Part shown: positions 1,407-24,180 of the stretch, one piece after another | Numbering within the stretch: position 1 is the first letter of the stretch | Layout: every line of letters begins with the position of its first letter | DNA from: an uncultured Desulfatibacillum sp. | Lineage (GTDB): Bacteria; Desulfobacterota; Desulfobacteria; Desulfobacterales; SpSt-501 | Direction of reading: 5' to 3' | Length of the DNA: 58,353 nt | Assembly: GCA_964562235.1 (NCBI GenBank) | Contig: CAZLSV010000012.1 | Coordinates: 9,263 to 67,615, forward strand | Notes under the pieces: generated by a model | The model's input: only the letters and a program-made list of their open reading frames with translations | Databases searched by the model: none | What the model was told of the DNA's origin: nothing | Position numbers and translations under genes: made by a program

Positions 1407-4079
1407 TTACGTGGAAGAGCTGGGAAGCGGATATATTTCAAAACCCGCTGCTTTAAATTTCCCCGGCAATGTGCGGATGATCTTAAAATCATACTCTTTG
1501 ATATCCGGCGCCAGAGCGCTCCAGGGAATTAGATGTGGCGAGTGCTTTTTCGTTACATCTTTTGTATCTGCATAATGCCACCCGTGAAGCAGTCTCTCGA
1601 CATTCCATCGGCCGTGTTCCATTTCGGCCAGCTTCTCTATGCTATTTTCCTTTTCTCTAAGGTAGGCTTCAATGTCGAACAGCTCCCCGCTCGGATTTGT
1701 TGATTCACGTAGGCCCAAACCGACGGTCTTCAGAATGTTTTCGGCATAGGCAACCTGGTGGTAACATGAAACTTTAAATTCTGGCGGGTGCTTTTCGTGC
1801 TCCCACGGCAGCAACGCAGGCTCTTTCGGAGTCGCAAAGTTGACATAGTCAAGGTGGGCCTGTCGGGCGGCTTTCTCGAACTTCTTCCGCTCTCCGGGAA
1901 GTTCGTCAATTATCAAGAAAGCACGCAGGGTCATCGCATCCATAGGCAACCGAATCAGGCTTTTGTGGTCCTGCCAGCCCGGATCGCGGAACTGCCGGCC
2001 CTGGGGTATGGCTGGGTCTTCCACCACCCCCACTCGCGCGCCCAAAGCAAGCCCGACTGCGCATTCGGTTTGCGATATTTTCCCGCCGCAATAGCTGAGG
2101 CCCTTTACCCGGCAGGGATCGACGCCAGCAGCAACAATGTCGGTCCAGCCTTGCAGAGGTTCGAGGGGTGTAAAATCGCTTCCCGTGGAGGGAATAAGGA
2201 AAGCAAACCTGCCGGGATCTTCATCCCTCTTTACACCGTGGGGCAGTAAGTTGGGGTGATAACCAAAGCCTTTAATCTTACCACTTGAGCTTTGAGCGAT
2301 TTCGCCAGCCAGGCCGCTGATGCCCGATGTCGTCCCGCCGCAGATGAGCTTCAACGCCAATCCCTCAGAGGCGCGGAGCAGATGAGGCCTGAAGCGGTCA
2401 ATAGCGCTCTGCACCTCGGGAGCGCAGCCGCCAGAAAGAATGACAATGCTTCCACTTTGAGAAATGTCATTATTAGAAATAGGCTGCGGTTTCTTGTTCC
2501 AGGAAGCCCGCTCGGCCAGATCCTGGATGGCTCCCGGATCATGAACCCGCACCGCCAAACCCAGCAAAAGCGCCCTTTCACACCATTTAAAGCCATCGAG
2601 CTCTTTGCGAATGCACCGGATACGCCTGAACGTTTCTCTCATCCGGAGCAGTGCGCGATTGGCGGCGCATGGACGGTCGGCAATGCCGCAGGCATGCGCA
2701 CCAGCAGGCTCCTCTTGGGGAGGATCGCACAACCGTATGAGCTGCGCCATGGCCATCAGAGCCTCAAAGGGCTCTTTAGTGAAAAGGTGGAACACTGCGA
2801 GGCTGGCCCAGGCCAGAGGCAAGTTCACACCCGCCTCTATCTGCTTCCGGCAGCGCTCCACGGCATTTCGGATCATTGGGGAAGCCAGCCGAATGACGGT
2901 GTCGTTGGTGAGATGGGCGACCTCGAATTCCAGGTAGCGACAGAGCGTCACCGGCTCAGTCGGATCAAGGGTCACCGCCTGCTGAAAAATATTGCGTGCC
3001 TTGGTTTCGTCTTCGCGAGCCCAGCTCTCGGCCAATGCGCACAGCGTCTCTGCGTCGGGTTGGGGGTGGTTGCAGGCTGCTTGCAGCGCTTGGCGGCCTT
3101 CGATATACTCCTTGTTTTTGGGTGTATCCCAGTGAAGTTCGGTCAATGCTATCCCTCGCGCACGCTGGACTCCCTGATGAGGCTCTTTGGAATAATCGGC
3201 CAGTACTGCAAGGGCCGTCGAGTGTTCTCCGATCGAAAGAGCCAACTGGCCAATCTTGACAGCCATTTCAGTATTGCCAGGGTCCTGCTCAAGCACGATG
3301 CGCAACCGGGCGATCTCGGGCTCTACCATTTCGGGTTTGCGATAGGCCCCGCTATTCGACTTGAATGCATCCAGCGCCTGCACGATTCGTCCGAATTCAC
3401 GATCAGCCCCCTCGAGCACGGCTGCCAGCGCAGCGAATTGCCGGCGGATATTGGCCGGAACCTTGACCTCGGTTTTATAGGCCATGTCGTGGCCGATGTC
3501 GGCCCAGGCATGCTCCAACAGCGTGCGGACCTGGATCTCCGCCTTGAGGTTCTGAATCGTCGTGGGAAAATCGGTGCCTATCCCGGAGTCTCTGAGCTTC
3601 GTTGCATTGACCGACACGATGAAATGCACCGATCGGTAACCGAACTCCGTGGGCGTCAATCTCTGGCTGATGTCTCCGCTGTTGGCTCGGTCAATATCGA
3701 ATGCGTGTTCGATGAATCGGCAGACCGCAATGACCTGGGCAGACGTCTGGACGATCACTCGCCCTCCGCAAAGGTCGGTTACGCGCAGCAGCGGGTCGGG
3801 CGGAAGCGGGTCTTGCGGATCGGTGTAGAGCGCCTTTTTTCTGAGGATTTTTTCCGCAAAGCTGGCCACCGATTTTGCCCGCGCTTCCACGATGGCCAAT
3901 GGAGCCAATTTGCGACACGCTTCTTTGAGAACGACCCTTAAAAATTTTTCGTATTCAAGGTAGTTTTCCCTATCCTGTTTGAAACGCCCTACGTGCTCAG
4001 CCACCCATTGGTTGTCACTTAGTTTGGACCACTTCTGCACAGTGGTGGGGTCATTCTCGCTGATGGCCATGATTCCCAT
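1407..4079 (-). CDS. RelA/SpoT-family nucleotide pyrophosphokinase fused to a TPR-like helical region, a SLOG/LOG-like domain and a C-terminal RyR-type module
   Basis: 890 aa. RelA/SpoT motifs: DLCGGRVIV, GYRSVHFIV, EIQVRTLLEHAWADIGHD. SLOG/LOG-like Rossmann motifs: IVILSGGC, LICGGTTSGISGLAGE, YCGGKISQTECAVGLALGARVGVV. RyR-like C-terminus: LAEMEHGRWNVERLLHGWHYADTKDVTKKHSPHLIPWSALAPDIKEYDF. Confidence 0.85.
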   Translation of the reverse strand: MGIMAISENDPTTVQKWSKLSDNQWVAEHVGRFKQDRENYLEYEKFLRVVLKEACRKLAPLAIVEARAKSVASFAEKILRKKALYTDPQDPLPPDPLLRVTDLCGGRVIVQTSAQVIAVCRFIEHAFDIDRANSGDISQRLTPTEFGYRSVHFIVSVNATKLRDSGIGTDFPTTIQNLKAEIQVRTLLEHAWADIGHDMAYKTEVKVPANIRRQFAALAAVLEGADREFGRIVQALDAFKSNSGAYRKPEMVEPEIARLRIVLEQDPGNTEMAVKIGQLALSIGEHSTALAVLADYSKEPHQGVQRARGIALTELHWDTPKNKEYIEGRQALQAACNHPQPDAETLCALAESWAREDETKARNIFQQAVTLDPTEPVTLCRYLEFEVAHLTNDTVIRLASPMIRNAVERCRKQIEAGVNLPLAWASLAVFHLFTKEPFEALMAMAQLIRLCDPPQEEPAGAHACGIADRPCAANRALLRMRETFRRIRCIRKELDGFKWCERALLLGLAVRVHDPGAIQDLAERASWNKKPQPISNNDISQSGSIVILSGGCAPEVQSAIDRFRPHLLRASEGLALKLICGGTTSGISGLAGEIAQSSSGKIKGFGYHPNLLPHGVKRDEDPGRFAFLIPSTGSDFTPLEPLQGWTDIVAAGVDPCRVKGLSYCGGKISQTECAVGLALGARVGVVEDPAIPQGRQFRDPGWQDHKSLIRLPMDAMTLRAFLIIDELPGERKKFEKAARQAHLDYVNFATPKEPALLPWEHEKHPPEFKVSCYHQVAYAENILKTVGLGLRESTNPSGELFDIEAYLREKENSIEKLAEMEHGRWNVERLLHGWHYADTKDVTKKHSPHLIPWSALAPDIKEYDFKIIRTLPGKFKAAGFEIYPLPSSST

Positions 4080-4309: not shown

Positions 4310-4768
4310 ATGGGGCTTCAAAATAACGAAGGAGACCTTTCGGTGAGCAACCAAGCTTCGCACCCCGTGCCGGTGATACGCCTTATAATCCCCAATGAAG
4401 CAGCCAAAGCACTCATCCTTTGCCGCCAGAACACCTCATACTCAGAGGGGCTATGGAACCTTCCGGGCGGCAAGGTGGACTACGGGCGGCTGGTGGAAGA
4501 TGAAGTGCGCAAGGAGCTGATGGAGGAGACCTCCCTCGCGTGCACCTCCATGCGTTTCCTTTTCTACCAGGACAGCCTGCCGCTGGAACCGGGCGGCATG
4601 CACTGCATCAATCTCTACTTTGAGTGCTCCGTGGAGGGCTCTTTTAATCTCAACGAAGAGTCCAGCCGATTCGCCTGGATCGGCCCGGAGGACTTGAGTC
4701 GCTTCCCCCTGACCTTCCGAAACGACGTGGGGCTTTTAAGGTACTGGGAAGAATTCCGGGACCGCTGA
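4310..4768 (+). CDS. Nudix hydrolase
   Basis: Nudix box GGKVDYGRLVEDEVRKELMEETSL (core KELMEE). An alternative GTG start at 4343 lies 8 nt after AAGGAG. The gene is divergent from the RelA/SpoT-SLOG gene. Confidence 0.8.
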   Translation: MGLQNNEGDLSVSNQASHPVPVIRLIIPNEAAKALILCRQNTSYSEGLWNLPGGKVDYGRLVEDEVRKELMEETSLACTSMRFLFYQDSLPLEPGGMHCINLYFECSVEGSFNLNEESSRFAWIGPEDLSRFPLTFRNDVGLLRYWEEFRDR

Positions 4769-4819: not shown

Positions 4820-6514
4820 TCAGATGGTCCGGATCAGCTTGTCCGCCGCCTTGGCGATGAGGGCCTCCATGCCTTTCAGTTCCCTCTCAAGGGAGCGCAT
4901 TCGCGATCTAGCGCCCTCGAGGTCTTTCTGAAGCATGATTCCCATGAATTTCATGGAGCCGGTCAACCCGGGCAGCACCGATTCCACGCTTTTAAGGGGG
5001 CTGGACCTGAATTTTTCTTGATTGTGGCTCAGCAAAGGCAGTTCGTCCAGGCGGTTCTGAATGGACATCCGCATGGCGGCTACCATTGAGTCTTCCGGCA
5101 GTCCTCTTCGGGCCAGAGGTAATAGATTTTCGCGGATGGTGTTGATGAGATCCTGAAGCTGTTTCAAGTGGTCGAGCTGATCCACCCAGAGGGGACCCGG
5201 GGGTGCCGGGGCGTGCGCCGCGACCTGCCGGGTCTGGCTCAAATCGCTTTCGGATAACCACAACACCCTTATGTGCTCGACCCGGAGCGCTTCCCCGAAC
5301 AGGGCGAAGGCCTGGGAGAGAACGGCCTTGAGTTGCCGCACGTTGCCTTGCCACGGGTAGTTCTTGAGCTCCCTCAAAACCTTTGCGGACAGCGGCTTGG
5401 CTTTTTTCCCCGCGATTTTATTGAACCACAGGTGGGTTGCAATCACCCGGATGTCCTCGGGGTGGCTGCGCAAGGCCGGAGTCCGGAGCACCAGGCCTCG
5501 CAAACGGTAATACAGGTCTTCGCGGAACTGGTTCGTGGCCACCAGGGAGAAAAGGTCACGATTGGTCGCCGCGACGACCCTTCCGGCGAAGCGGATTTCC
5601 GCCGAGCCGCCGACCCTGCAAAATGGCTTCCCGTCGATGGCCCGCAGGATCTTGGCCTGGTGGCTGAGCGGCATGTCGCCTATCTCGTCCAGAAAAAGGG
5701 TCCCTCCCCTCACCTGCTCGAGCGCGCCCTCCTTGTCGCTCAACGCCCCGGTGAAGGCACCTCTCACGTGGCCGAAGAGCTCAGACTCCAGAAGGTCCGT
5801 CGGGATCGCTGCGCAATTGACCACTTTAAATGGCCGGCCGGCTCTTGGACCGCAGAAGTGGATCTCCTGCGCGATGATCTCCTTACCGGTGCCGGTCTCG
5901 CCGAGAATGAGCACCGGGCCGCTCGAGCCGGCGGCGGCCATGGCCATCTGCAACGCCAGCTGGACGTCCCGCGCGCCGCCCGCATAGGCTTTGGACATGC
6001 GCGGCGGGATCCGGTAACGGCCCACGAGATGGAAAAGAGTCTCCTTGGCGAAGTCCTTTGTAAGCGAGATCCTGAAGGCCCGTGACGGCCGACGCACTTT
6101 GTCCCTGCCGGCCACCGGGGTCAGTACTTCAACGCAAAGCGTTTGAAAAACGTTGGCGTCAACACCGATCAGATAGATATTCCTCTCGCCTTTTCGGTCG
6201 GCGCTCTCCAGCAGGCTGCGGATACCGCTCTTGACTTTTTTGGCGGCGCTGTAGTTCCCGTCAATCAGCGGAATCTTGTCCTTGGAGAGAAGATACCCCG
6301 AGAGGCCTTTTCGCGAATCCTTTCGACCCCGGTCGGTTACGGCATCCTTGAACTCCCGAAGGGCCTTGAGCTGCTCCACCGGGAAAACCAGGGCCGCCTG
6401 CGGATGGCCCAATCTGAATTCGTTGAGGTCTTGACCCGAATCAAAGGAGACCTCTTGCGGGGTAGGTGGCTCGCCTCCCCCGCTGCCCGGAAACAGCAAA
6501 ACCGACGTTTGCAT
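4820..6514 (-). CDS. Sigma-54-dependent transcriptional activator (bEBP AAA+ core) with an unassigned N-terminal domain and no recognisable C-terminal Fis-type HTH
   Basis: Motifs: Walker A GETGTGKE, GAFTGA loop (HVRGAFTGA), Walker B LFLDEIGDM, RVVAATN, FREDLYYRL. ATG at 6514 is preceded by GAGG; the track ORF extends to a TTG at 6562. The C-terminal ~130 aa look coiled-coil-like rather than HTH. Confidence 0.85.
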   Translation of the reverse strand: MQTSVLLFPGSGGGEPPTPQEVSFDSGQDLNEFRLGHPQAALVFPVEQLKALREFKDAVTDRGRKDSRKGLSGYLLSKDKIPLIDGNYSAAKKVKSGIRSLLESADRKGERNIYLIGVDANVFQTLCVEVLTPVAGRDKVRRPSRAFRISLTKDFAKETLFHLVGRYRIPPRMSKAYAGGARDVQLALQMAMAAAGSSGPVLILGETGTGKEIIAQEIHFCGPRAGRPFKVVNCAAIPTDLLESELFGHVRGAFTGALSDKEGALEQVRGGTLFLDEIGDMPLSHQAKILRAIDGKPFCRVGGSAEIRFAGRVVAATNRDLFSLVATNQFREDLYYRLRGLVLRTPALRSHPEDIRVIATHLWFNKIAGKKAKPLSAKVLRELKNYPWQGNVRQLKAVLSQAFALFGEALRVEHIRVLWLSESDLSQTRQVAAHAPAPPGPLWVDQLDHLKQLQDLINTIRENLLPLARRGLPEDSMVAAMRMSIQNRLDELPLLSHNQEKFRSSPLKSVESVLPGLTGSMKFMGIMLQKDLEGARSRMRSLERELKGMEALIAKAADKLIRTI

Positions 6515-6728
6515 GGTATTCCTCGGAGAATGGTGTGACGAGCTGAAGAGAACCCCTTTCAAGTAAAAGCGAACTGCCGAAAGTATTGATCTCTCTTTAA
6601 CAAAAGCCGCAACTCAACACAATACCAACCCAACAGACCGCCAACTATACCGCCCAACTCAACCCGGTCTTCCCTTCAATTCAAACAACATATTGGAACC
6701 AATAGAAAATTAAGCGGCTTCGATCCCC

Positions 6729-6743
6729 TGGTACGGCATTTGC
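6729..6743 (+). promoter_or_regulatory. Sigma-54 (-24/-12) promoter for the 6805..14579 operon
   Basis: TGGTAC-GGCAT-TTGC matches TGGCAC-N5-TTGC with the exact GG/GC spacing. It lies about 60 nt upstream of ATG 6805 and next to the divergent bEBP gene. Confidence 0.7.
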
Positions 6744-6804
6744 CATGCTTTACTAAAAAGTACTGCAACCGGTGCTTGTCTTTAGAAAAGCCAGGGAGGA
6801 TCGC

Positions 6805-9054
6805 ATGGTGGAGGCGCAGCCGCACAAAGTCTGGGACGAGAATTCGGCGCAGCAGACGCTGCTTCAGGTGGCGGAGTTTTGCAAGAACGCGGTGCAGCTC
6901 GAGCTCAAGGTGGCATCCGACGGCTCATCGTTTCTGCTGAGCGCGCGCGGCGGGATTCCGCCCCCGCCGGGCATCTTCTCGGTCGCCGGCCGGCTCACCG
7001 ACGAGGGGCTCGTCGTCGTGAAGGTCGAGCTCTTCAGGAGCCTGGATGAGGTCCGGGTGTCGGCCCCCGCCTTCTGCGGGCTGCTCTCGCGCCTGGGAGA
7101 AAAGACGCGGCTTTGCCCCCCTCCGGACGGCCGGGCCGTGGAGGGCTCCCTGTGGGCGGAGCTCAGGGTCCGGGCCACGCCGCTTTCCGTGGAGCGCGCT
7201 TCGGCGCTGCTGGCCGAGTTCACCACTTTGTCCGAAATGGCCAGGCTCATGCAGGCCGGCCTGCCCGCGGCGCTGACCGACGGCGCGGTCACTCAGCTCT
7301 ACGCCGAGCTGGGGGGCGTCCTCTCCCCGATCCACCCCTGGGTGCTGCCGGATCCTGCATCCGCGGAACCGCTGCTCGCCTTCGGCCGCCGAGTCATGGA
7401 TTATCTGAATGCGGGCTTGAGCATCGCCATCGCTTCCCCGTTCAGCGTCCAGCAGGATGCAGCCCTGGCCCTCGTGGCCCGGGAGGCCCGTGAGAGCAAC
7501 CGCACCCTGGGTCGCCTGGTGCTTCCATCGGTCAATGCCCGCAGTCTGATGGAGGTGGTGCGCAAGGCGCCCGGCCTGATCGCGGCGCCCGTTGCCAACA
7601 TCAGCCTGGGGTCCAGCCCGTACGAACTCGGCAACGAAATGCCGGCGCTGCTTTTCGCACTGGCGGAGGCCAACGCCCCGATGGTTTTCTACGGTCGGTT
7701 CGAGGAGCATCAGACCCTCTTTCATGGCGGCCAGGGCGGCGCCAGCGACCCATTGCGCCCGGTGCTGGTCCGTGCGCCGGAGGTCCCTTTTGAGAGTCTG
7801 GTCCGGTTCGCCGTGATCTCGGCCGGCCGTCTCCACCCGGGCGGACTTCCTCAATCGGCGCTGGATGAACTGACGGTCGATGCGCTCGCCGCCCTGGGTG
7901 GTTTACCCCCGGCCGGTCGGGCCAGAATCCTGCCGGCGCTGGCCCGCCGGTCCGTGAACGCCCGGGCCGCCGGCCGCAAGTCGCATCCGGGCGCCGCCGC
8001 CGAATTTGCCGCCCGGGCCGCCGGTTTGTCCGAGACCCTGTCCGGCCTGAGTCCGCAGCCCAGAGCCGTGCGCACTCCGCAGGTCCAGCAGCGCATCACC
8101 GAGGTCCTGACCGACCCTTCGTTGCTGGCGTATTTCCAGGAGCATCTGCTGGCCCAGGACCCGGCGCTGCTCGCTTTGGTTGATCGTTTGGGGGGCGAGG
8201 CCCTGACGCGGCCCCCGCACCAGCCGATCCGCTACTGCGCTCTGGGGACGCCCGGGACGGGCAAATCCGAGAGCGCCGCCCTGCTGGCCCGCCGCCTCGG
8301 CGTCCCCTTCATCAACATCGACGCCGCCAGCATGTCGGACTACCACACCGCCGCCGCCCAGCTTCTGGGCTCGGGCCGCGGCATCGTGGGTTCGCACCAG
8401 AGCGGGCGCCTGGAACAGGCCGCCAAGCACCACACGGGCGTGGTGGTCGAGGTGAGCGACATCGACCACGCCGTGCCTTCGGTGCAGTCCTACATGGCGG
8501 ATCTTTTTCTGCAGGTGCTGGACATGGGCGAAGCCCAGAGCTCGATCGGCCCGAAGTTCTCCTGCGCCAACCTGATCTTCGCCTTCACCATGAACCTGCC
8601 GGGCGGCATGGACGAGCGCATCCGCCAGAGCATGGGCTTCAGCCCCACCCCCAGCCGACAGGAGGTGACGCGCGGGGTGGCGGCGGAGGTGAAGTCGATG
8701 TTGTCGGGCGCGTTTCTCAGCCGCATCGGAACCCCGGTGGTTTTCGACCCGCTGGAGGGCGCGGCCCTGGTGAAGATCGTCGTCCGTGCCGTTCAAAACG
8801 CCGTGCGCTCGGCGGCCGAACGGTTGGGTTTCACCGTTCTGGAAGTCGCCGTGTCGCCCGCCACGGGCGAAGCGGCGCTGAACCTTCTGCGCTCGAAGCT
8901 GGTCTCTTTCGGTGCCCGGGCGCTCCTTGAGCACGCCCGGGATCTGTCCGCGAAAGCCGTCCTTGAATGGATGCGTTCGGCTCCGGCCGTACGCTCCGTA
9001 AAACTAAGTGTCGCCGTCGATGCCGGCGGTGATCTCATCGTCACGTCCACCTGA
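6805..9054 (+). CDS. ClpA/ClpB-like AAA+ protein (D2-type module with small C-terminal domain) carrying a large unassigned N-terminal half
   Basis: Walker A GTPGTGKS (8245..8268); Clp-D2-like context LLGSGRGIVGSHQSGRLEQAAKHH; the Walker B position reads VVVEVSDIDHA; D2-small-like tail FLSRIGTPVVFDPLEGAALVKIV. ATG 6805 follows GGGAGG; the track ORF begins at 6772. Confidence 0.75.
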   Translation: MVEAQPHKVWDENSAQQTLLQVAEFCKNAVQLELKVASDGSSFLLSARGGIPPPPGIFSVAGRLTDEGLVVVKVELFRSLDEVRVSAPAFCGLLSRLGEKTRLCPPPDGRAVEGSLWAELRVRATPLSVERASALLAEFTTLSEMARLMQAGLPAALTDGAVTQLYAELGGVLSPIHPWVLPDPASAEPLLAFGRRVMDYLNAGLSIAIASPFSVQQDAALALVAREARESNRTLGRLVLPSVNARSLMEVVRKAPGLIAAPVANISLGSSPYELGNEMPALLFALAEANAPMVFYGRFEEHQTLFHGGQGGASDPLRPVLVRAPEVPFESLVRFAVISAGRLHPGGLPQSALDELTVDALAALGGLPPAGRARILPALARRSVNARAAGRKSHPGAAAEFAARAAGLSETLSGLSPQPRAVRTPQVQQRITEVLTDPSLLAYFQEHLLAQDPALLALVDRLGGEALTRPPHQPIRYCALGTPGTGKSESAALLARRLGVPFINIDAASMSDYHTAAAQLLGSGRGIVGSHQSGRLEQAAKHHTGVVVEVSDIDHAVPSVQSYMADLFLQVLDMGEAQSSIGPKFSCANLIFAFTMNLPGGMDERIRQSMGFSPTPSRQEVTRGVAAEVKSMLSGAFLSRIGTPVVFDPLEGAALVKIVVRAVQNAVRSAAERLGFTVLEVAVSPATGEAALNLLRSKLVSFGARALLEHARDLSAKAVLEWMRSAPAVRSVKLSVAVDAGGDLIVTST

Positions 9055-9067
9055 AAAGGAGGGTCTC

Positions 9068-10090
9068 ATGAGCAAACAGATCTACCGTGTCTGGAATCCA
9101 GATGAATTCCGCAAGGCCGGTCCCAGCGACCTGATCGAGCTGCGGCCGGTGCCGGGGTTCCATGCCCTGTTTTTTAAAAAGGCGGACCTCGAGCTGATCG
9201 TCTACGCCATCGCCTCGAACGAGTACTGCCACATATCCGGGCCGACCGGCACGGCCAAGACCTCGCTGATAGAGGCCCTCTACCGGGTGCCGGAGAATTT
9301 CTTTGCGCTCTGCCAGGCGTTGGATTTTCCGAAAAAGCCGCTCCGGCTCTACCCCATCCAGGTTCTCGTCTTCGAGACCCCGGGCGAGCTCTACGTGCGC
9401 CGCGCCCTCAAGGACGGCGCGACCTTCGACGAGAAAAGCATGGTGGTGCTCTCCCTGGAGGACGCCTACCGCCACCGCAAGACCTGCTACGCCCTCCTCT
9501 GGCTGCGGGAGCTGGGCCGCGTGCACTCCTCCAGCGTCCAAGGCGGGCTGCTCGACATGATGTACCCGGGCGATATCACGCTGCCCGACGGCTCGCGTAT
9601 CGACGGCAGCGAGATCTCCTGGATCGCCGACAGCAACTACCAGGCGGAGAGCGACGCCACCCACACCCTGGTCGTCTTCGACGCCGCCCTCAAGCGCCGA
9701 TTCTGCATCAACGCCACGCTGGATTACCTGCCGCCCCAGCAGGAAAGCCTGGTGGTGCGGGAGATCCTCAAAAAGGAAAAACCGCGCGGTTTCCAGAAGG
9801 GGGACGAGGAACTGATCGACAAAGTTGTCCAGCTGGGCGACGCCATCCGGCGCCAGCGGGCCGAGGGCAACCTGCACTCCGCCCCGCCGCCCACGATCAG
9901 CGGTTATCTGGCGTTCATGCGCATGGCCATCCGGCTGCGGCACCTCAGCCTGCAGCACCTGGCCATGGCGACCCTGCTCGGCCACTGCAGCCAGGAGGAC
10001 TCCAAGCAGGCCGCGGCCGTTTTGAACGAGGTTTTCGGGCTGCAGGCGGTCGAAGCGGACGACACGGCCATGGGAGTGAATCTCTTTTAA
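9068..10090 (+). CDS. AAA_5 / MoxR-CbbQ-NorQ-like AAA+ ATPase
   Basis: Walker A GPTGTAKT (9239..9262). ATG 9068 follows AAAGGAGGG; the track ORF begins at 9008. It sits directly upstream of a VWA protein, the classic MoxR-VWA pairing. Confidence 0.75.
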   Translation: MSKQIYRVWNPDEFRKAGPSDLIELRPVPGFHALFFKKADLELIVYAIASNEYCHISGPTGTAKTSLIEALYRVPENFFALCQALDFPKKPLRLYPIQVLVFETPGELYVRRALKDGATFDEKSMVVLSLEDAYRHRKTCYALLWLRELGRVHSSSVQGGLLDMMYPGDITLPDGSRIDGSEISWIADSNYQAESDATHTLVVFDAALKRRFCINATLDYLPPQQESLVVREILKKEKPRGFQKGDEELIDKVVQLGDAIRRQRAEGNLHSAPPPTISGYLAFMRMAIRLRHLSLQHLAMATLLGHCSQEDSKQAAAVLNEVFGLQAVEADDTAMGVNLF

Positions 10091-10105
10091 TCAAGGAAGG
10101 GCCCC

Positions 10106-12232
10106 ATGCAATACAGAGGACATTATTCGCCCGGTTACGCTTATGGCGTCTGCCGGCGCCGGTCGAAGACCGATTGGGCCGGCATCAGCCGCAACGACGC
10201 CTACAAGCTCAACATCGAATGGGATTATCGACTCCAGGCGCAGCGCCTGTTCTATATCGCGTGCAAGCAGGCGCAGCTGGCCGTGGCGCGCCAGGTAAAC
10301 CCGGCGCTCGATTCGAGCTTCACCCCCAAGGTAAAACCGCAGATCAGCGCCGCCTACACGAGCTATCCGGCGAGCCTGGCAGTGCCGGCGTGCATCGGCC
10401 AAACGGCGTTCCTAGAGTATCAGCAGTGGATGAAGGAAAAAATTCTCATCACCTATCTGGCCGATTATCTGAAAAACCCGGCCGAATTCGACGAGGTGCG
10501 CACCAACCCCGAGGCCTATCGGCATCTGGCTCAAACGGTGGCCGAAACCGTTCAGACGCGGCTGCTGCTCGAGTCGCTCAGCCGCCTGCGGCCGGCGGCC
10601 ACGGTCGAAACCGCCCGTCTCTTTTTGGCGAGCCAGCAGACCCTGCGATTCGATTCTCTGCCCGAAATCCTGCGGGCGGTCATTCTTTTTGGAGATGTCT
10701 TGCCCGGCTGGCGAAATCGTCTGTTGCATCCGTTGACTGCATCCATCCTGAATGATGCCACCGAGGTCAGCACCCCGTATCTGGCGCGCCTGCACCACAC
10801 CAAGTCTCATTTGCTGGTCGACGAGGGGGTCAGCTGGGTCAAAACGCTCAGCCGCCGCTTGGCCGTTTATCTGCCGGAGCCGCCCCCCCAGCCGGCACCG
10901 CCTCAGCCGGATCAGGGCGGCGCTTCCGGCAGCGGCAAGGCGGGGACGCCGGAGAATCAACCGCCGCATCGAGCAAGGAGTTTTAACCCGTATTCGCCCC
11001 TCGCCCCGCCGCTCAATTCCAGCCGGGCGCCGACCCTCTTCGAAGAGCCCAATCCCATGCGGCAGTTCGCCCAAGGGCTTTCGTCCGCGCAAAACCGCGA
11101 TGGCGGCGGCTCGTTTGAAGGAATCCCAGCGCCGGCCGCCAAAGGGTCCGTCGACCCGTTGTCGCAGCTGGTCAACGATTTTTTCCAGACCCTCCAGCAA
11201 GCGGGTGGACAGACGCAGCAGTACCAGGACATGCGCTCGGATCTGGTCGAGCAGGCGGCCCGCAGCGCCGGGTTCAAGGAGGGCCCGCTGCAGGGCAACC
11301 CCGCCGACGGCCACAACGTAAAGGTTTCGCTCGGAGACGGTCGAGAGGCCGGGGGGGAGATCTTCGACCGGCCGGTGGAGCTTGCCGACGATTTTTCGGG
11401 CTACGAACTCCTCAAGCGCGAGGCCCAGTCGGTAACCGAGGATCTGCGCCGCACGCTCTATCCCAATTTCACCCAGGTGCCTGAAACCGAGCGATTGCGC
11501 ACCACCGGCACGCTCGACCCGGCGCGCCTTCCACTGGCCGACCTGGTCTCCGCCGTTTTCAGGCGCTACAAGGTCTGCGAACAGGCCGACAAGCGCGGCC
11601 GGCCGGTGCTGCTGGTGGCCTGCGACGGCTCCGGGTCGCTCAACAGCTCCCAGATCCGCATGCTGAAGATCCTCTGCTGCGCCTGGCTTCTCGCGACGGT
11701 CGGCAAGGCGATTCAGGTATTGGCTGGGCTTTACCACAGCGGCATCATCCGGCAGGGGCTCAGCGGGCCGCTCGTGCAGTGGATATTCCACCCTCGCAAA
11801 ACACCGGCCACCGGACGCAAGGACGCCGCACGGGCACTGCTGTCGCTGCCCAACTCCGGCACGGGGGCCCAGTCCGATGCCTTGTCGCTGGCCTTCATGC
11901 TCGATGAGGCAGCGGCGCTGGCCGCCGGGCGCCGGATCTATCTGATTCTTTTAACGGATTGTGCCTGGAACACCAGCTTCTCCATCGGAAAGTCCGGCAA
12001 GGAGGAGGTTTTATCCTTCTTCCAGGGAGCCTACGAGCGGTTCGGCGACAAGCTCCACACCACCCTGGTGGCCCTGGGCGTGACCGGGGAGACCGGGTTC
12101 GAGAGCCTGCTCGACAAGGTGATCACGGTCAGCAACGACGAGTTGAAGGACCCGTCGACGGTTGCCGCTAAAATCGGGCTCTACGTGGCCGCCTGCATGA
12201 AGGAGCGCCGCCGGATGGTGGCCCGCAAATAA
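10106..12232 (+). CDS. von Willebrand factor A (VWA) domain protein (CbbO/NorD-like partner)
   Basis: 708 aa. The C-terminal VWA has a MIDAS DxSxS motif (VLLVACDGSGSLNSS). A Pro/Gly-rich linker (EPPPQPAPPQPDQGGASGSGKAGTPENQPP) sits mid-protein. The gap to the upstream AAA+ gene is 15 nt. Confidence 0.75.
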   Translation: MQYRGHYSPGYAYGVCRRRSKTDWAGISRNDAYKLNIEWDYRLQAQRLFYIACKQAQLAVARQVNPALDSSFTPKVKPQISAAYTSYPASLAVPACIGQTAFLEYQQWMKEKILITYLADYLKNPAEFDEVRTNPEAYRHLAQTVAETVQTRLLLESLSRLRPAATVETARLFLASQQTLRFDSLPEILRAVILFGDVLPGWRNRLLHPLTASILNDATEVSTPYLARLHHTKSHLLVDEGVSWVKTLSRRLAVYLPEPPPQPAPPQPDQGGASGSGKAGTPENQPPHRARSFNPYSPLAPPLNSSRAPTLFEEPNPMRQFAQGLSSAQNRDGGGSFEGIPAPAAKGSVDPLSQLVNDFFQTLQQAGGQTQQYQDMRSDLVEQAARSAGFKEGPLQGNPADGHNVKVSLGDGREAGGEIFDRPVELADDFSGYELLKREAQSVTEDLRRTLYPNFTQVPETERLRTTGTLDPARLPLADLVSAVFRRYKVCEQADKRGRPVLLVACDGSGSLNSSQIRMLKILCCAWLLATVGKAIQVLAGLYHSGIIRQGLSGPLVQWIFHPRKTPATGRKDAARALLSLPNSGTGAQSDALSLAFMLDEAAALAAGRRIYLILLTDCAWNTSFSIGKSGKEEVLSFFQGAYERFGDKLHTTLVALGVTGETGFESLLDKVITVSNDELKDPSTVAAKIGLYVAACMKERRRMVARK

Positions 12233-12245
12233 GAGGAGGCATACG

Positions 12246-13400
12246 ATGATCATAGGACCTTTAGGCAATCCAACAGGGGGAGGGAATCGCGGCGGTGGAT
12301 TCGACGATGATTGGAACTGGTCCTCGCGCCGCATGGACCGCCGGAAGCTCGAAGCGGCCCTTTCAACGCTGGTCCAGCAGCTCGGAGCGTACGATGAAAA
12401 GCGCTCCGAGATGGAAAAGCGTGCCGTCACACCGGCCATGCTTCTGTCTACCATGGAGCTCCTCAAGCTTACGTTCGAAGTGGAGGTCCTCGGCCGCACC
12501 CACAAGGTAGCCCTCGTAAACCAAGCCTCGGTCCGGGAGCTCCTGCGGGATCTGTGGCACTATGAATGCCGCTTTGAGATCCGCACCTCCGCCGCGGGCA
12601 TGCCGCTTTATTACCTGCCCCGCGTCTGGCACGACTACGACGCTGTTTACAGCCTGGTGCTCGAGGACTTGTACCAGAGCCCCGGGTACCCCATGGGAGA
12701 GGAGCGTTTCGTCAAGATCATGTGGGGCGGCCACGAGGTTTACTTCATCCGCCTGTCGCCGTTTCGCAAGTCCCTCCTCGAGGCCCGCTCCCCGTTGAGA
12801 GATCCGGACGCGGAAGACGAAATCGATGCGCTTCTCAAAAAGATCGGCCGCCTGGTCTTCCAGGCCTGCTGGCACGAGGACCAGTACGTGGGAATGGTGG
12901 CGGCCGATCAGTTCGAGCTCGTCCATTTTCGCCGGGCTGTCGAACTGCTCTACCTCTGCCTGACCGCCGAGCTTTGTGAGCTTCGCGGCGCCGTTGATGA
13001 GACCATGATAGCGTTCTTCAGAAACGTCTATGCCCAGCCCGCCATCGTCTCTTTTCTGAACCGCCTCGTACGGCTGGACGGCAAGGCCCTGGCCGAGGTG
13101 CCGCAGGCGGCGCTCAAACACTTCCCGGCCCTGTCCCGGACCTTCAGCCGGTTTCTGGCGGTGGAGCTCCCCTGGGGCCGCAGCAAGGCGCTGGTGCCGC
13201 TTTACAAGCTTCTCTTCGCCAACTTCTCGCGCCTGGACAGTGTGCGAGGCGCGATCGCCGCCACCGAGGAGCTCCGCAAGGCGGCTGAGCGGCTCGAGAA
13301 GCAGTCTCTGGCCGTCATCGAGGCACTTCTGGATGGAGCTGGAGATGTGGGGCTGGAGCCCGGCCCGGACCGGGCTGAAAAAATGGCGGTTGCCGTTTAA
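12246..13400 (+). CDS. Hypothetical protein (helical, no family recognised), fourth gene of the sigma-54 operon
   Basis: 384-aa ORF with coding-like composition. It lies 13 nt after the VWA gene and is preceded by AGGAGG. Confidence 0.6.
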   Translation: MIIGPLGNPTGGGNRGGGFDDDWNWSSRRMDRRKLEAALSTLVQQLGAYDEKRSEMEKRAVTPAMLLSTMELLKLTFEVEVLGRTHKVALVNQASVRELLRDLWHYECRFEIRTSAAGMPLYYLPRVWHDYDAVYSLVLEDLYQSPGYPMGEERFVKIMWGGHEVYFIRLSPFRKSLLEARSPLRDPDAEDEIDALLKKIGRLVFQACWHEDQYVGMVAADQFELVHFRRAVELLYLCLTAELCELRGAVDETMIAFFRNVYAQPAIVSFLNRLVRLDGKALAEVPQAALKHFPALSRTFSRFLAVELPWGRSKALVPLYKLLFANFSRLDSVRGAIAATEELRKAAERLEKQSLAVIEALLDGAGDVGLEPGPDRAEKMAVAV

Positions 13401-13412
13401 TCGGAGGGGACC

Positions 13413-14579
13413 GTGCGAATTCGAATCCAAGCGATTCCGTTGACGTCGGTGTTCGAGGGCTTCCACCCGCGGCTGTGGGTGCTGGCGTTCATTGCCCTGG
13501 TGTTTATCAGCATCGCCTGGCTGGATATTACCCGCCCACCGCCCATCCGGCCCTCGTTCCATTCCATATTTTCATCGCACGAGGAGATGGGACAGGATTC
13601 CGAAACGCCCGAGCAGGAGCGCACTCCGTTGTTCACCGCCGGCATCCGCTCCGCCCCGCCGGAGGGGATCACCAAAGAGATCGGCGACTGCGAGCACAGC
13701 TTGACCGTCGATGTGGACGGCATCGGCCGACGCGAACGCGTTTGCGTGCGCACCGCCGTTTACAGAAATCGGGATGGACAGGCCCTCTACGATTCGCTGA
13801 TCGTGGACATCTATAAAAACGGGGACTGGCTTCTGCGCCAGGAACTCGATCGCGGCCTCTTTGGGGCGGAACGCTTTCACCTGCTGCGCGATCTCGACAT
13901 GGACGGCCGGGCGGAGCTCATCACGGTCCTTTCGGCCCGCCCGGAGGGCTCCGGCGAGGACGCCTGCCGGATCTACAAGTTCGACGGCTACGCCTTCGTT
14001 GAGGCTCTCCACGTTTTCGGCCTGCCCCCGCAGGATGCGTCGGTGGCCTTCTTCCTGCGCCACCTCCCCGAGATCCAGGCGGACATCAGCGCGCGCTATG
14101 CCGATGCCATCGCCAGCCCGGATCTGTGCGCGGACGCCGGCGATGAGGGCGACTGTTTCGCGGGCTCGCCCTGGCTGCTCGACTCCAACGGCGACGGACG
14201 CCTGGAGCTGGTCCAGCTGCTGGAGCCGCCCGACAGCCTCGAGAGTTCCAAAACCGGCCCGTTCCAGCTCTTCGTTAAGGAATTTAGGCGCCGCGGGATG
14301 GAGGGCCGAAGCCGCTTCCACGCGATGGGGCCGGGGCCCGCCGGCTCCAAAACTGGATCGATCCTCTTTCACCGATCAGACGACGGTCCGGTGATCCTGC
14401 TGGTCTCCTTTACCGATCCCGGCGCCCGGGCCGCCCGCGCCTCCTTGGTCGCTTTCGAAATCGCCGGAATCCGCGTGAAGAAAGCTCCCAGGCTCAGCGG
14501 CTTCGCGCTGCCCGGGCTCAACGAGCGGCTGCACTTCGCCAACAAAGAGGAGCCCCTGGAAACCCGGTATTTGAAGTGA
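13413..14579 (+). CDS. Membrane-anchored protein with FG-GAP/VCBS-like repeats
   Basis: GTG start after GGAGGGGA. N-terminal TM segment HPRLWVLAFIALVFISIAWL. Calcium-loop-like repeats LRDLDMDGRAELI and LLDSNGDGRLELV. Confidence 0.6.
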   Translation: MRIRIQAIPLTSVFEGFHPRLWVLAFIALVFISIAWLDITRPPPIRPSFHSIFSSHEEMGQDSETPEQERTPLFTAGIRSAPPEGITKEIGDCEHSLTVDVDGIGRRERVCVRTAVYRNRDGQALYDSLIVDIYKNGDWLLRQELDRGLFGAERFHLLRDLDMDGRAELITVLSARPEGSGEDACRIYKFDGYAFVEALHVFGLPPQDASVAFFLRHLPEIQADISARYADAIASPDLCADAGDEGDCFAGSPWLLDSNGDGRLELVQLLEPPDSLESSKTGPFQLFVKEFRRRGMEGRSRFHAMGPGPAGSKTGSILFHRSDDGPVILLVSFTDPGARAARASLVAFEIAGIRVKKAPRLSGFALPGLNERLHFANKEEPLETRYLK

Positions 14580-14895: not shown

Positions 14896-15198
14896 GAACC
14901 GCAGCCTCTCACGGCAGTTCAAAAAGAATTGTCCCCCTCGGCGTCCTCCGTGCCTCGAGCGCAGCGTGCGCTGAGCTGAACCCTTTTCCGGCGCGTGGTT
15001 ACAAGGTGTTTCATAACCCCGTCTGACGCCTGGGGGCGGCGTTGCCGGCCTCTCGAAAATGCTCACCACCCATGGCGGTGGCTCCGCTTTCCGAATCGGC
15101 CGGCGCCTTGACCGCAGACGTGATCCAGGGTTTTGAACCCACTTGTAGGCTTTCGGCTTTGGCAATCGATCAACCGCTCATGTAAAAGGAGATGGAGG

Positions 15199-16692
15199 AT
15201 GAAAAAGCAACCGCGGGTATTGCACCTGGTGTTTGCGCTGGCATTGTCTTTTCTGACGGCTTTTCACTCCGGATGCGGCGGCGGAGGCGGGGGCGACAAC
15301 GGTCAAACGGACAACGGGCCGTCTCCTCCACCCCCTCCAATCGCCTACCAGTTGTATGGACTGAACTTCAGCCCTTACGAGGGCGATCAAGACCCCAACC
15401 AGGGGGCGGTGGTGAGCGCCGAGCAGATCGAGCGGCGCATGCGCATCATAGCACCCTACACGAAATGGGTCCGAACCTTCGGCTGCACGCGCGGCCTCGA
15501 ACATGCCGGGGCCATCGCCCACCGCCTGCAGCTCAAGATCGCCATGGGCGCATGGATCGGCCCCGACCAAACCGCCAACGAGATCGAGCTGGATACCCTG
15601 ATCCGCGAGGCGCTCAGCGGCAACGTGGATCTGGCCGTCATCGGCACCGAGGTGCTTTTGCGGGGCGATGTGCCGCCAGCCGACCTGATCGCCTACATCC
15701 GGCGCTTCCGGCTGGAAGTCCCCAATGTCCCGGTGACCACCGCCGACACCTATGCCGATCTGCTCGATAACCCGGTTGTGATGGCCGCTTGCGATGTGAT
15801 CATAGCCAACTACTACCCTTATTGGGAAGGGGTGGATGTGAACAACGCCGTGACCTGGCTGCACGCCCGCCACCAACGCCTGGTGTCCGCGGCCGCCGGG
15901 AAAGAGGTGCTTGTTTCCGAAACCGGCTGGCCGAGCGCCGGCGACACCATCGCCGATGCTCTCCCCTCACCCGGAAACGCCGCGTTCTACTTCCAGAACT
16001 TCGTTTCGTGGGCCCGGGCCGAGGGGGTCGATTATTTCTATTTCGAAGCCTTTGACGAGAGCTGGAAGTCGGCCTACGAGGGGCCACAGGGCGCGGCCTT
16101 CGGGACATGGACCTCCGACGGGGAGCTGAAACCCGGCATGCAGGCGGTATTCGATGGCCAGACTGTGGCGGACAACTGGACCTGCATGGACATCCCGGGC
16201 GGAACAGGGACCCCAGCCGTCGAACTTACCGCTGTGCCGCCGATCGGCTCTTCATCGGACCTACGCGGCCAGGTGTGGCACGTCGCGCCCGCCAACTACG
16301 GAGTCGCGGTCTACATCAAGGTCCTCGGCGGATGGTGGACCAAGCCGTTCTGGAATGACCCGGTCACCTCGATCAACTGCGACGGCTCCTGGACATGCGA
16401 CATCACCACCGGCGGTGAAGATCCTCAGGCCACCGACATCGCCGCCTTCCTGATCCCGCTGGCCTACACGCCGCCAACCGCCGCCGGGGAGGGAGTGCTG
16501 CCGGTCGAGCTCTACACGAACAGCATGGTGTATGTTGAGGTGAAGCGGGATTTATCATCGCCGGCAATCGGGGCAGGGAGAAAAATAAATTACTTTGCCG
16601 AATCCAAGGAGAACTACAAAAACATGTTGCCGCTCCACTTGCTCAACAATCACTGTGCTGAGAAGTTTTCAGCAAAAACACCAATACGCTGA
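15199..16692 (+). CDS. Glycoside hydrolase family 17-like (beta-1,3-glucanase/transglycosylase) lipoprotein
   Basis: Lipoprotein signal MKKQPRVLHLVFALALSFLTAFHSGC. GH17 signature LVSETGWPSAG. ATG 15199 follows AAAGGAG; the track ORF starts at 15133. The last ~45 codons are encoded by AT-rich DNA unlike the rest of the gene. Confidence 0.7.
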   Translation: MKKQPRVLHLVFALALSFLTAFHSGCGGGGGGDNGQTDNGPSPPPPPIAYQLYGLNFSPYEGDQDPNQGAVVSAEQIERRMRIIAPYTKWVRTFGCTRGLEHAGAIAHRLQLKIAMGAWIGPDQTANEIELDTLIREALSGNVDLAVIGTEVLLRGDVPPADLIAYIRRFRLEVPNVPVTTADTYADLLDNPVVMAACDVIIANYYPYWEGVDVNNAVTWLHARHQRLVSAAAGKEVLVSETGWPSAGDTIADALPSPGNAAFYFQNFVSWARAEGVDYFYFEAFDESWKSAYEGPQGAAFGTWTSDGELKPGMQAVFDGQTVADNWTCMDIPGGTGTPAVELTAVPPIGSSSDLRGQVWHVAPANYGVAVYIKVLGGWWTKPFWNDPVTSINCDGSWTCDITTGGEDPQATDIAAFLIPLAYTPPTAAGEGVLPVELYTNSMVYVEVKRDLSSPAIGAGRKINYFAESKENYKNMLPLHLLNNHCAEKFSAKTPIR

Positions 16693-23500: not shown

Positions 23501-24180
23501 CGATGCAAATTGCACAAGAGCGTTTCGGGCCGGAACACCCGAACACCGCCGAGCGCATGGACACCCGAGCGCGGTTGCTTCATGCCTGTGGTGAACTGGA
23601 GGAGGCGCAGACGCTTATGCGCCGTGCGCTGAAGATAGCGGAGGCACAAGTACCACCCCAGCCTATCGTGATAGCCAGCCGCCTCCGTAACCTTGCGCTT
23701 CTTCTGCACGACGACGGCCAGCTCCCGGAGGCCGCGTCGTTGTTTCGCCGCGCGTTGGAGATGTCAAAAGAAATTTATGGGTTGGAAGACCCGGAGGTTG
23801 CAACCTGCCTAGGAGACCTTGCCCGTCTGCTTCACGACTTTTCTGGGGGCGAGCTGGCGGAAGCGGAACACCTCTTACGCCGCGCAGTGACAATCAACGA
23901 GCGTAGATACCCCATAGATCATCCGGCCATGGTCGCGGACCTGAAGTCGATGGCGCGGCTGTTGAAAAAGACGGGCCGGCTCGCAGAGGCGAAAATCCTC
24001 ATGCGCCAGGCGTTAATAATCGACATCGACCGTTACGGCAAAGCCAGCCGGATTGTCTCTGACGACATTGATTGGATAGTACAGTTAGGGAGGTCTGAAC
24101 GCGAGGACCTGCACAGCGAATTGTCCGGTGATAAGAAGTTTCCTTTCTTCCATCCTGCCGAGCACATATTACAAAAATAA
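20524..24180 (+). CDS. STAND NTPase: DUF4062-like N-terminal domain, NACHT/P-loop domain and a TPR array
   Basis: 1218 aa. N-terminus RVRVFVSSTFQDMVEDRNELMSHTWPLLRVFC...LLGERYGWIP (DUF4062 pattern). Walker A VIGPSGSGKSALLANW. Walker B-like CIIALDALNQLND. About 12 kinesin-light-chain-type TPR units follow (…HPNVATALNNLAQL…AEAERMMRRALEI…). Confidence 0.85.
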   Translation: MHANPRFPATANRRVRVFVSSTFQDMVEDRNELMSHTWPLLRVFCRERQVELVEVDLRWGISEEQSERNETLILCLNEIRACRPFFIGLLGERYGWIPSKKAFTPDLLQEQPWISESARKSITELEIMHGVLNDPNRALHAFFYFRDPVYAGNRGCGFLPEDAESAVRMGSLKERIRAVCAKGKITLHEDYSGPRELGEVVLQDLKAAIGACFPAEEIPDPLTRQALDHEALAEILRRTYVACPAYFDRLDKLALDSSLPLAVIGPSGSGKSALLANWIQHWRQAQPNDFVFQHFIGATHDSTAHWEIAQRLIGEIARWIGDEDDLPRSQPEILNALPHWLAKARAKAERDGVRCIIALDALNQLNDQDHAQHLGWLPEAALTGPLRLVVSTTGGDSLRAVESRKWVCLPIKPLKPGECRSMITGYLALFGKKLDERRLERLALTPTSGSPLYLKILLDELRVTGVYDRLDERLDDYISASNIPMLLRQVLRRYVNDYERDRPGLVGEVLELIRAARRGLTEAEILRLVRPADLPQLPPAVWAPLRAALEEGLVDRGGVLNFAHDFLRTAVKEEFGLSGSMTELRLRLAKEFEAQPVSARSCEELPWLLYHTGQCDRLRLCLLEIDRLIEIEKRDVQELMHYWIWLGEERTMGCAYLAPFRAWCQVVRNEEALAYGASHVAYFLNAAALYSEAEPIMREVLEMVEQRLGADHKDVAPHLNNLALLLKARGRLRDAVPMMERALNIAERYYGRAHPNVATALNNLAQLVGEKGDPAEAERMMRRALEIDEAEYGPEHAKVATRLSNLAQYLPARGSKEAEQMMRRALEIDNKRLGKDHPVVAIRLNNLAQFLLATGRLGEAEPMMHEALRIDERSLGKAHPTVAIRLGNLAQLLQAKGHFDEAEILMKRALEIDKLCLGPDHSDVAADLAALGRLYQAGNRLTEAEANLRSAIQIIERSSTRNYHRLLAILDQLAQVLYEADRSEEAANLTNRAMQIAQERFGPEHPNTAERMDTRARLLHACGELEEAQTLMRRALKIAEAQVPPQPIVIASRLRNLALLLHDDGQLPEAASLFRRALEMSKEIYGLEDPEVATCLGDLARLLHDFSGGELAEAEHLLRRAVTINERRYPIDHPAMVADLKSMARLLKKTGRLAEAKILMRQALIIDIDRYGKASRIVSDDIDWIVQLGRSEREDLHSELSGDKKFPFFHPAEHILQK
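22540..24045 (+). repeat. Intragenic tandem array of ~126-bp (42-aa) TPR units
   Basis: Recurrent DNA and peptide units, e.g. ATGATGCGGCGCGCGCTGGAGATCGAC / ATGATGCGTCGTGCGCTGGAGATCGAC encoding MMRRALEID, spaced about 42 codons apart. Confidence 0.75.

Follow-up and report, generated by a model that had tools for sequence, protein, structure and literature searches.

A rare, usually sigma-54-linked gene cassette around a predicted MoxR–VWA couple as a candidate conflict module

Every characterised pair of a MoxR-type AAA+ ATPase and a VWA-domain protein serves a neighbouring client (PMC13036017; PMC7159879, section 8), and in the NorQD and CobST pairs the AAA+ ring grips the VWA finger and remodels a linker or the client (PMC13036017; 10.64898/2026.07.21.739949). 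The MoxR–vWA couple has also been proposed as the threshold switch of conflict systems (PMC7159879), and one described class, 'FtsH ternary', combines a MoxR AAA+ ATPase, a divergent vWA domain fused to a large helical domain and a third protein with two FtsH-type AAA+ domains, of which only the C-terminal one is active, with effectors encoded as stand-alone genes (PMC7159879, section 21; Kaur, Burroughs, Iyer & Aravind 2020). Here we analyse a 58,353-nt stretch of DNA from an uncultured Desulfatibacillum sp., hereafter the window, that carries a cassette of four core genes, A to D, a downstream FG-GAP-like gene, E, and a gene for a sigma-54 activator, or bacterial enhancer-binding protein (bEBP). 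Our leading interpretation, to which we give a probability of roughly 45%, is that the cassette works as an inducible conflict (anti-invader) module, built around a MoxR–VWA couple and tied to nucleotide signalling of the ADP-ribose type. We read it this way because it is a rare, patchily distributed and syntenic operon, usually with its own sigma-54 activator and promoter, set in islands rich in TIR, STAND, RyR, SLOG and NUDIX genes.

Genes in the window were defined by calling open reading frames (ORFs) and scanning the products with Pfam and NCBIfam hidden Markov models (HMMs). All on the forward strand, A (6805..9054, 749 amino acids (aa)) is a Clp/Hsp100 D2-type AAA+ protein with a private N-terminal half, B (9068..10090, 340 aa) a predicted MoxR-clade AAA+ ATPase of the CobS/NorQ-like kind, C (10106..12232, 708 aa) a predicted helical-domain and VWA adaptor, and D (12246..13400, 384 aa) a protein with no recognisable family or fold; E (13413..14579, 388 aa), membrane-anchored and FG-GAP-like, is an optional accessory. 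The five genes are separated by 13, 15, 13 and 12 nt, with the start of B taken as 9068, which homologues back; an earlier sequence-only reading of this DNA had put the gaps at 12-15 nt. The start codon of A (ATG 6805) is preceded by a GGGAGG ribosome-binding site.

We compared the cassette with 35 related loci (L001–L035), 22 from species-representative genomes and 13 obtained by exact-protein look-ups; about 24 of them have neighbouring sequence for context counts. The order A-B-C-D is kept in every locus with enough sequence, with the exception of L030, which has B and C only. E is detectable in about 8 of 25 loci and a gene for a GH17-family protein recurs in seven, so the conserved unit is the four genes A–D, with E and GH17 optional. 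The five-gene module of the sequence-only reading therefore stands as a four-gene core plus activator, to which E does not belong, and the gene-neighbourhood comparison proposed there as a check found synteny and no client enzyme. The distribution is patchy across phyla: record titles name Desulfobacterales, Desulfobaccales, Thermodesulfobacteriota, Acidobacteriota, Nitrospirota, Anaerolineales, Cytophagia, Lentisphaeraceae and others, around six phyla. The families are also rare, with 31 relatives of D among 5.8 billion proteins and 262 representatives among 1.84 billion (exhaustive profile search), and 109 clusters for C; all four are unnamed or labelled 'hypothetical'.

Two outlying arrangements accompany this pattern. 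L030 (3418-9707) is a distant variant, its C 38% identical, in which B and C are joined to 235- and 155-aa genes and a TPR protein, and the same pair, at 227 and 155 aa, follows D in L031 (13090-14270). These loci hint that MoxR–VWA cores form a modular family whose partners can be exchanged. The only cultured isolate is L029, Desulfosarcina ovata subsp. sediminis (AP021876.1, 1,307,257-1,329,416), where a NACHT NTPase and two HEAT-repeat proteins precede A–D in place of the sigma-54 activator and no −24/−12 site is present.

B has no significant match in Pfam or NCBIfam, AAA_5 included, and precomputed AAA_5 matches in its homologues are weak (L030) or faint (L033). A profile of its 16-member family nevertheless matches CobS (1.9e-7) and the MoxR structure 2r44 (0.011) in the PDB; the family alignment carries GPTGxAKS and ALKRRF motifs, with an intact Walker A, GPTGTAKT, in the window protein. 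Walker B reads hhWLRE, R-E rather than D-E, with the Asp replaced by Arg across the whole family. Judged by these matches, B is a MoxR-clade AAA+ ATPase despite its R-E Walker B. In L003, L005/L006, L013, L015, L016, L019/L025 and L028, B is split into two ORFs of ~240 and ~100 aa, ATPase core and lid, which overlap by 4 nt in L005/L006 and, by ORF coordinates, in L015 and L016. Because it recurs in unrelated assemblies, the split looks genuine rather than an artefact of sequencing.

The VWA domain of C is visible only by structure prediction, since sequence models miss it: none of 21 members matches Pfam VWA or CobT, even at E ≤ 1, and there is no PDB sequence match. An AlphaFold model built on 40 homologues (predicted local distance difference test (pLDDT) 75.5) has an all-helical N-terminal domain (residues ~25-255, high pLDDT), a disordered Pro/Gly-rich linker, a small beta/alpha domain and a C-terminal VWA domain. 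The top Foldseek matches of the latter are the NorD VWA in NorQ–NorD complexes (E 2.6e-5). The vWF A1, complement C2a and integrin I domains come next; probability is 1.0 throughout, and target-normalised template modelling (TM) scores are 0.57-0.69. The metal-ion-dependent adhesion site (MIDAS) is intact, CDGSGS...GTGxQSD...TDC (DxSxS...T...D), its residues conserved in the family.

From the profile matches and the predicted structure, we assign B and C to a MoxR–VWA couple of the NorQD/CobST kind. The MoxR/AAA_5 and VWA labels given in advance were motif guesses, below Pfam and NCBIfam thresholds; the CobS and 2r44 matches, the NorD-like model and the MIDAS now back them. With NorQ/NorD and CobS/CobT(/CobN) the pair shares its profile and fold matches, a partner composed of an N-terminal domain, flexible linker and C-terminal VWA domain with MIDAS, and adjacent genes in the order AAA+ then VWA. 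It differs in the family-wide Arg in Walker B, in the extra invariant partners A and D and in that B and C both lie under every Pfam and NCBIfam threshold. Nor is there a familiar client: no nitric oxide reductase (NOR), Rubisco, carbon monoxide dehydrogenase (CODH), CobN or methanol dehydrogenase gene occurs in the window or is conserved in related loci, as had been supposed for the first three, leaving D as the only candidate.

The second ATPase, A, carries its AAA_2 / Clp-D2 domain at residues ~440-700 (Pfam AAA_2, 1.9e-13; 51 bits against 26 bits for AAA). Its family profile matches ClpA at 1.2e-16 and the D2 domains of ClpA, ClpC, Hsp104 and ClpB at 1e-16 to 1e-8, and all 37 PDB profile matches are Clp/Hsp100 proteins. 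Walker A is intact, and the sensor-1 Asn, Arg finger and sensor-2 GAR are retained. All 17 aligned members have S-D in place of the canonical D-E of Walker B, and GIVG in place of GYVG in the pore loop. The C-terminal 300 aa thus align to the D2 module of the Hsp100/Clp proteins (ClpA, ClpB, ClpC, ClpV), and A differs from these in its Walker B and pore loop, in the lack of a ClpN, a detectable D1 or a middle domain, and in its unique N-terminal 430 aa. Measured against the Hsp100/Clp definition, only a D2-like module was detected, with no second Walker-competent ring, and all NCBIfam Clp scores fall far under their cut-offs. The 'ClpB-like' label of the sequence-only reading therefore holds for the Clp-D2 module, and its unassigned N-terminal half measures 430 rather than 480 aa. 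That half has no match by HMM libraries, PDB profile search or hhalign against the three AAA+ profiles of the locus. Its interpretation as a degenerate Clp D1 ring is plausible by eye only (the string SLG..YELGNE...PV.F.G...FHGGQGG..DPL.PV set against the D1 core); a whole-half profile and a 195-column sub-profile gave no PDB match. The family-wide, non-canonical Walker B motifs of A (S-D) and B (R-E) suggest that nucleotides are turned over slowly and in a switch-like manner, as would be apt for a threshold device.

D is the only invariant partner that is not an ATPase, which makes it a candidate client or effector. Its invariant residues are W209-H210-x-D212-Q213, C244-E245-L246-R247 and N326-x-S328-R329. 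The AlphaFold model (pLDDT 81, predicted TM-score (pTM) 0.77) has no fold match among PDB and BFVD viral structures (best E ~0.1, TM-scores <0.2), and the sequence has none in Pfam, NCBIfam, PADLOC, PHROGs or the PDB, in keeping with its earlier description as a 384-aa orphan. E has one N-terminal hydrophobic segment, in line with the membrane anchor ascribed to it; its FG-GAP_3 score is 14.2 bits in the window and passes the threshold of 26.9 only in homologues (30.5, 30.5 and 27.1 bits in L003, L016 and L007).

Taken as a whole, the cassette resembles the simple 'FtsH ternary' type in its MoxR AAA+ protein, in the divergent vWA with an N-terminal all-helical domain present in C, in a third protein, A, with an active C-terminal AAA+ module and a private, unrecognisable N-terminal part, and in the placement of effectors as adjacent stand-alone genes. 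That class has been reported in deltaproteobacteria and other complex bacteria (PMC7159879), and the closest relatives of the window are metagenome-assembled genomes of Desulfobacterales, a deltaproteobacterial group. However, the active AAA+ domain of A is of the Clp-D2/AAA_2 and not the FtsH type, an inactive first AAA+ domain is not demonstrable in A by PDB profile searches or hhalign, and no radical SAM gene, which that class can encode alongside as an alternative to the effector NEFF1, is conserved beside the cassette. Because of the first two differences we regard the cassette as a variant of the 'FtsH ternary' kind and not a member. The main text of PMC7159879 makes no mention of a sigma-54 activator or of RyR-domain partners. 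The judgement that the gene set maps onto no known pathway thus survives as regards a client, and is tempered by this similarity in outline.

Transcriptional control is the next distinguishing property. The activator ORF spans 4820-6562 (−), with a likely start at ATG 6514 that gives a protein of 564 aa (4820..6514), as in homologues. The protein has a ~185-aa N-terminal domain without family match, an AAA+ domain with GAFTGA (Sigma54_activat 2.3e-59, AAA_lid_14) and a helical C-terminal domain in which a Pfam scan and the family alignment detect no Fis-type helix-turn-helix (HTH). Its gene faces, as previously proposed, a −24/−12 promoter, TGGTACGGCATTTGC (6729..6743 (+)), which lies 62 nt upstream of the ATG of A and is the sole TGGYAC-N5-TTGC match in 58 kb, against 0.17 expected by chance. 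A GAFTGA-bearing bEBP and a −24/−12 promoter at the regulated operon are both present.

The arrangement extends well beyond the window. An activator homologue adjoins the cassette in 21 of the ~24 loci with context, usually divergent from A, and 17 of 21 loci have a TGGCAC-N5-TTGN site 5′ of A, where chance would give 0.11 per region. Promoter and activator co-vary: L031 has both, and L029 (Desulfosarcina ovata) and L032 have neither. Sigma-54 control, claimed for the module from the sequence, is therefore usual and not universal. The intergenic regions between activator and A are further enriched in ACTCAAC/GTTGAGT, with 20 copies in 15 regions versus 0.5 expected (40-fold). The two copies in the window (6612-6618 and 6657-6663 (+)) lie 66-117 nt upstream of −24, as activator sites usually do, and we regard these repeats as putative upstream activator sites.

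Like RtcR of rtcBA and PspF of the psp operon, the activator is a bEBP without receiver domain, divergent from its sigma-54 operon and equipped with a dedicated N-terminal domain for sensing, and the strongest PADLOC matches of its AAA core are RtcR/PspF-type models. It differs in its N-terminal domain, which shows no detectable CARF or PspF-type character, in the helical domain (RyR in L018 and L034) that replaces the C-terminal Fis-type HTH, and in the ACTCAAC repeats. In L018 (11046-12617 (−)) and L034 (13399-14970 (−)), where an RyR domain stands in place of the usual C-terminal domain, the activator genes lie after D and are convergent with the cassette; the L018 domain scores 35.3 bits (threshold 27.4), and the L034-type fusion is found on 12 contigs. 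The activators of the closest relatives of the window, L001 (2643-4331 (−)) and L008 (2572-4308 (−)), are 32-37% identical to that of the window and lack GAFTGA, and their promoters (at 4498 and 4427, respectively) keep TGGCAC with a −12 element of TTGT or TTGA. For A–D, identity to the window is 63-80% in L001; in L008, with its fragmented genes, it is 75-82%. From these identities, the regulator would seem either to evolve much faster than the operon or to have been replaced.

In the gene neighbourhoods of the cassette, TIR and/or RyR genes lie ≤10 kb away in 17 of ~24 loci. The RyR proteins vary at the N-terminus: RelA/SpoT–TPR–SLOG–RyR in seven loci, TrkA_N–RyR in L009, L024, L026 and L027, AAA–RyR in L012 and L014, a solo RyR in L012 and a 1051-aa RyR protein in L033. 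In the window, the RelA/SpoT-like nucleotidyltransferase–TPR–SLOG–RyR protein has 890 aa (1407..4079 (−); RelA_SpoT 1.7e-16, RyR 2.1e-10, TPR_19), its SLOG domain (LSDAT_prok) being significant only in its full-length homologues, and its gene lies, like that of a 152-aa NUDIX hydrolase (4310..4768 (+); 4.4e-13), just upstream of the cassette. The RelA/SpoT–SLOG–RyR gene is a frequent but facultative partner, ≤10 kb from the cassette in L001, L003, L004, L009, L014 and L016, and in these same loci a NUDIX gene adjoins it. The sequence-only reading had placed the cassette beside the RelA/SpoT–SLOG gene, and the position is indeed not incidental, with that protein one of several recurring RyR proteins; its conflict-system reading fits these neighbourhoods.

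TIR genes occur in at least 12 loci. The window has a pair at 25399..28623 (TIR_2 1.3e-15, ThsB_TIR 2.8e-4, PFK 1.4e-45), consisting of a TIR–phosphofructokinase (PFK) fusion (25399-27543 (−)) and a 355-aa TIR protein (27556-28623 (−)). The gene for the latter is 13 kb from the cassette and not adjacent to the RelA/SpoT–RyR gene, and its orthologues (350-420 aa) lie near the cassette in L001, L003, L008, L009, L012, L015, L016 and L031. The TIR–PFK fusion, of which we found no description in the literature, recurs in L001 (16049-18118 (−)) and in L012 (11514-13793 (+)), there ~0.5 kb downstream of D. STAND NTPases (DUF4062/NACHT/NB-ARC with TPR or WD40) are frequent, as in L004, L005, L029, L030, L033 and L035, and the window has a DUF4062–STAND(NACHT)–TPR NTPase at 20524..24180 (+; domain scan).

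Some further observations concern these islands. G+C content is 0.47-0.53 at 24000-28000 of the window against ~0.63 around it, a patch that coincides with the TIR, TIR–PFK and 359-aa genes. These genes accompany the cassette in L001 as well, and the patch points to a block that was acquired separately. L031 and L032, which lack RyR genes, have an ADP-ribosylglycohydrolase gene and phosphoribosyltransferase genes flanking the cassette (L032 13382-14419 (−), L031 16135-16539 (−)), a further ADP-ribose/NAD theme.

RyR (PF02026) domains bind or cleave 2'/3' cyclic ADP-ribose (2'/3'cADPR) made by TIR proteins (PMC13232231). Thoeris-type TIR signalling and the phage RyDEP described in that work share with our loci the co-occurrence of TIR genes (ThsB_TIR-like) with SLOG and RyR proteins, and the EHxRW and Asp pocket positions of the RyR domain are conserved in the cassette-linked proteins. 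The differences are that a RelA/SpoT enzyme and/or a transcriptional activator, not SIR2 or Macro, would take the role of partner 'effector', and that the RyR proteins here are bacterial and multidomain, with the phosphate-contacting His not conserved.

If the cassette is a conflict module, its operation might be as follows. A trigger, most plausibly an ADP-ribose-type or alarmone nucleotide signal, would activate the bEBP; TIR or RelA/SpoT enzymes encoded nearby would produce the signal and RyR/SLOG domains would detect it; in two clades (L018, L034) the RyR domain is fused to the activator itself. The bEBP would bind the ACTCAAC repeats through its unusual C-terminal domain and open the sigma-54 promoter. 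The steps after transcription are inferred throughout. B would assemble into a MoxR-type ring and take hold of the VWA domain of C in the manner of NorQ–NorD and CobS–CobT, the MIDAS of C would capture an acidic peptide from its target, which could be D, A or a foreign protein, A would supply a second remodelling or threading activity as a Clp-D2-type ATPase, and D would be the client or effector that is released or activated. A more specific proposal, which we consider doubtful, makes the cassette the transcriptional output arm of a TIR/ADP-ribose-type immune pathway, in which RyR/SLOG domains, either on free-standing partner proteins or fused to the activator, would sense a cADPR-like signal and, via the sigma-54 activator, induce a hitherto undescribed Clp-like/MoxR/VWA machine with a client, D, of new fold that carries out the response.

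Several observations weigh against a conflict module. No TIR or RyR gene lies ≤10 kb from the cassette in 7 of the ~24 loci, and A–D contain no recognisable toxic or effector domain (nuclease, protease or pore). Against PADLOC-DB v2, B, C, D and E have no match, and A matches only in its generic AAA region (PDC-M37B, 2.4e-8). Searches of phage, plasmid and viral-contig collections did not find the cassette (C in 72,556 plasmids and 50,697 phage records, D in IMG/VR), and a tRNA search of the window found none, for which reasons an origin in a mobile element was rejected. A word-indexed search with the activator N-terminal domain gave a single relative, and hhalign of this putative sensor domain found no similarity to the SLOG-containing or TIR families of these loci. 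Co-location in islands can reflect shared mobility and not shared function, and the RelA/SpoT–SLOG–RyR, NUDIX and TIR genes could be a self-contained Thoeris-like system that merely neighbours the cassette. In some loci GH17, FG-GAP and SorC-type neighbours hint instead at an envelope or carbohydrate link.

Three other explanations account for parts of these data. The cassette may be a self-contained maturation system, in which D, an ordinary (non-immune) enzyme, would receive a metal or cofactor from B and C with assistance from A, or be activated by them in some other way, the sigma-54 cue being metabolic. The best solved relatives of B, the cobaltochelatase motor CobS and MoxR, point this way, as do the NorD VWA as best fold match of C, the place of D as the sole invariant partner other than the ATPases, with invariant His, Asp, Cys and Glu residues that could bind metal, and the precedent that characterised MoxR–VWA pairs all serve a neighbouring client (PMC13036017; PMC7159879, section 8). 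So do the absence of an immune-type neighbour from L019, L021 and L022 and the SorC-type sugar-binding regulator that takes the place of the activator in L032. We nevertheless think it unlikely: no enzyme fold can be recognised in D, the cassette is not accompanied by conserved genes of a metabolic pathway, its rare and patchy cross-phylum spread is linked to neither lineage nor pathway, its neighbourhoods are dominated by TIR, STAND and RyR genes, and a second, Clp-like ATPase is absent from all known maturation pairs.

A sigma-54 response for proteostasis or damage recovery, with Psp- or Rtc-like logic, an Hsp100-like unfoldase and MoxR–VWA co-chaperones, and no attack on invaders, would account for the kinship of A with the D2 domains of ClpA, ClpB, ClpC and Hsp104 and for the lack of an evident effector domain; the damage might come from toxin-like systems nearby (TIR NADases, RelA/SpoT toxins). 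Dedicated bEBPs whose N-terminal domains sense a ligand also run rtcBA and pspABC, the very group whose PADLOC models the activator core matches best. But A lacks ClpN, a detectable D1 ring and a canonical Walker B, with the pore-loop Tyr changed to Ile, and housekeeping repair leaves both the very rare, horizontally scattered distribution and the need for D unexplained, which makes this account distinctly improbable. We give still less weight, as a most improbable reading, to an envelope or exopolysaccharide machine whose cytoplasmic ATPases assemble or remodel a surface structure with E and a beta-glucan enzyme. It draws on the GH17-family secreted or lipoprotein glycosidase (15133..16692 (+) in the window; Glyco_hydro_17 2e-11), which together with E follows D in the window, L001, L003, L007, L008 and L016 and adjoins the cassette also in distant L032; on the peptidoglycan-binding and peptidyl-prolyl isomerase (PPIase) genes downstream in the window; and on a dockerin/lectin-type secreted protein after D in L010. 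However, about two thirds of loci lack E and most lack GH17, A–D have no signal peptides or membrane segments, and secretion or polysaccharide-synthesis genes are not conserved.

The remaining features of the window lie apart from the cassette. Searches for an intrinsic terminator after E or D gave no more matches than shuffled expectation. A cobalamin riboswitch (Rfam RF00174, 109 bits; 52955-53160 (+)) lies directly 5′ of a ThiC-family radical SAM gene (53252-54574 (+)), which is probably of the benzimidazole lower-ligand synthase type. A cobalamin link through the CobS/CobT likeness of B and C was considered and judged unrelated, since the riboswitch is 38 kb off and controls the ThiC-family gene.

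Should the cassette prove to be a conflict module, it would add control at the level of transcription (sigma-54, a dedicated activator and a new DNA-binding domain with its site) to MoxR–VWA conflict systems, which have so far been inferred from genomics alone. It would also tie bacterial RyR proteins to host-side signalling, where binding of cADPR by RyR domains has been shown only recently and only in phages. If the cassette is the output arm of a TIR-type pathway, it would represent a circuit in bacteria from a nucleotide immune signal to sigma-54 induction, together with a new effector class. The work also defines four protein families without a public model, one of which, D, has a confidently predicted fold with no PDB or BFVD match, and Desulfosarcina ovata subsp. 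sediminis offers a cultured host in which the core can be studied. Finally, the family-wide Walker B changes in A and B bear on how AAA+ rings may act as switches rather than motors.

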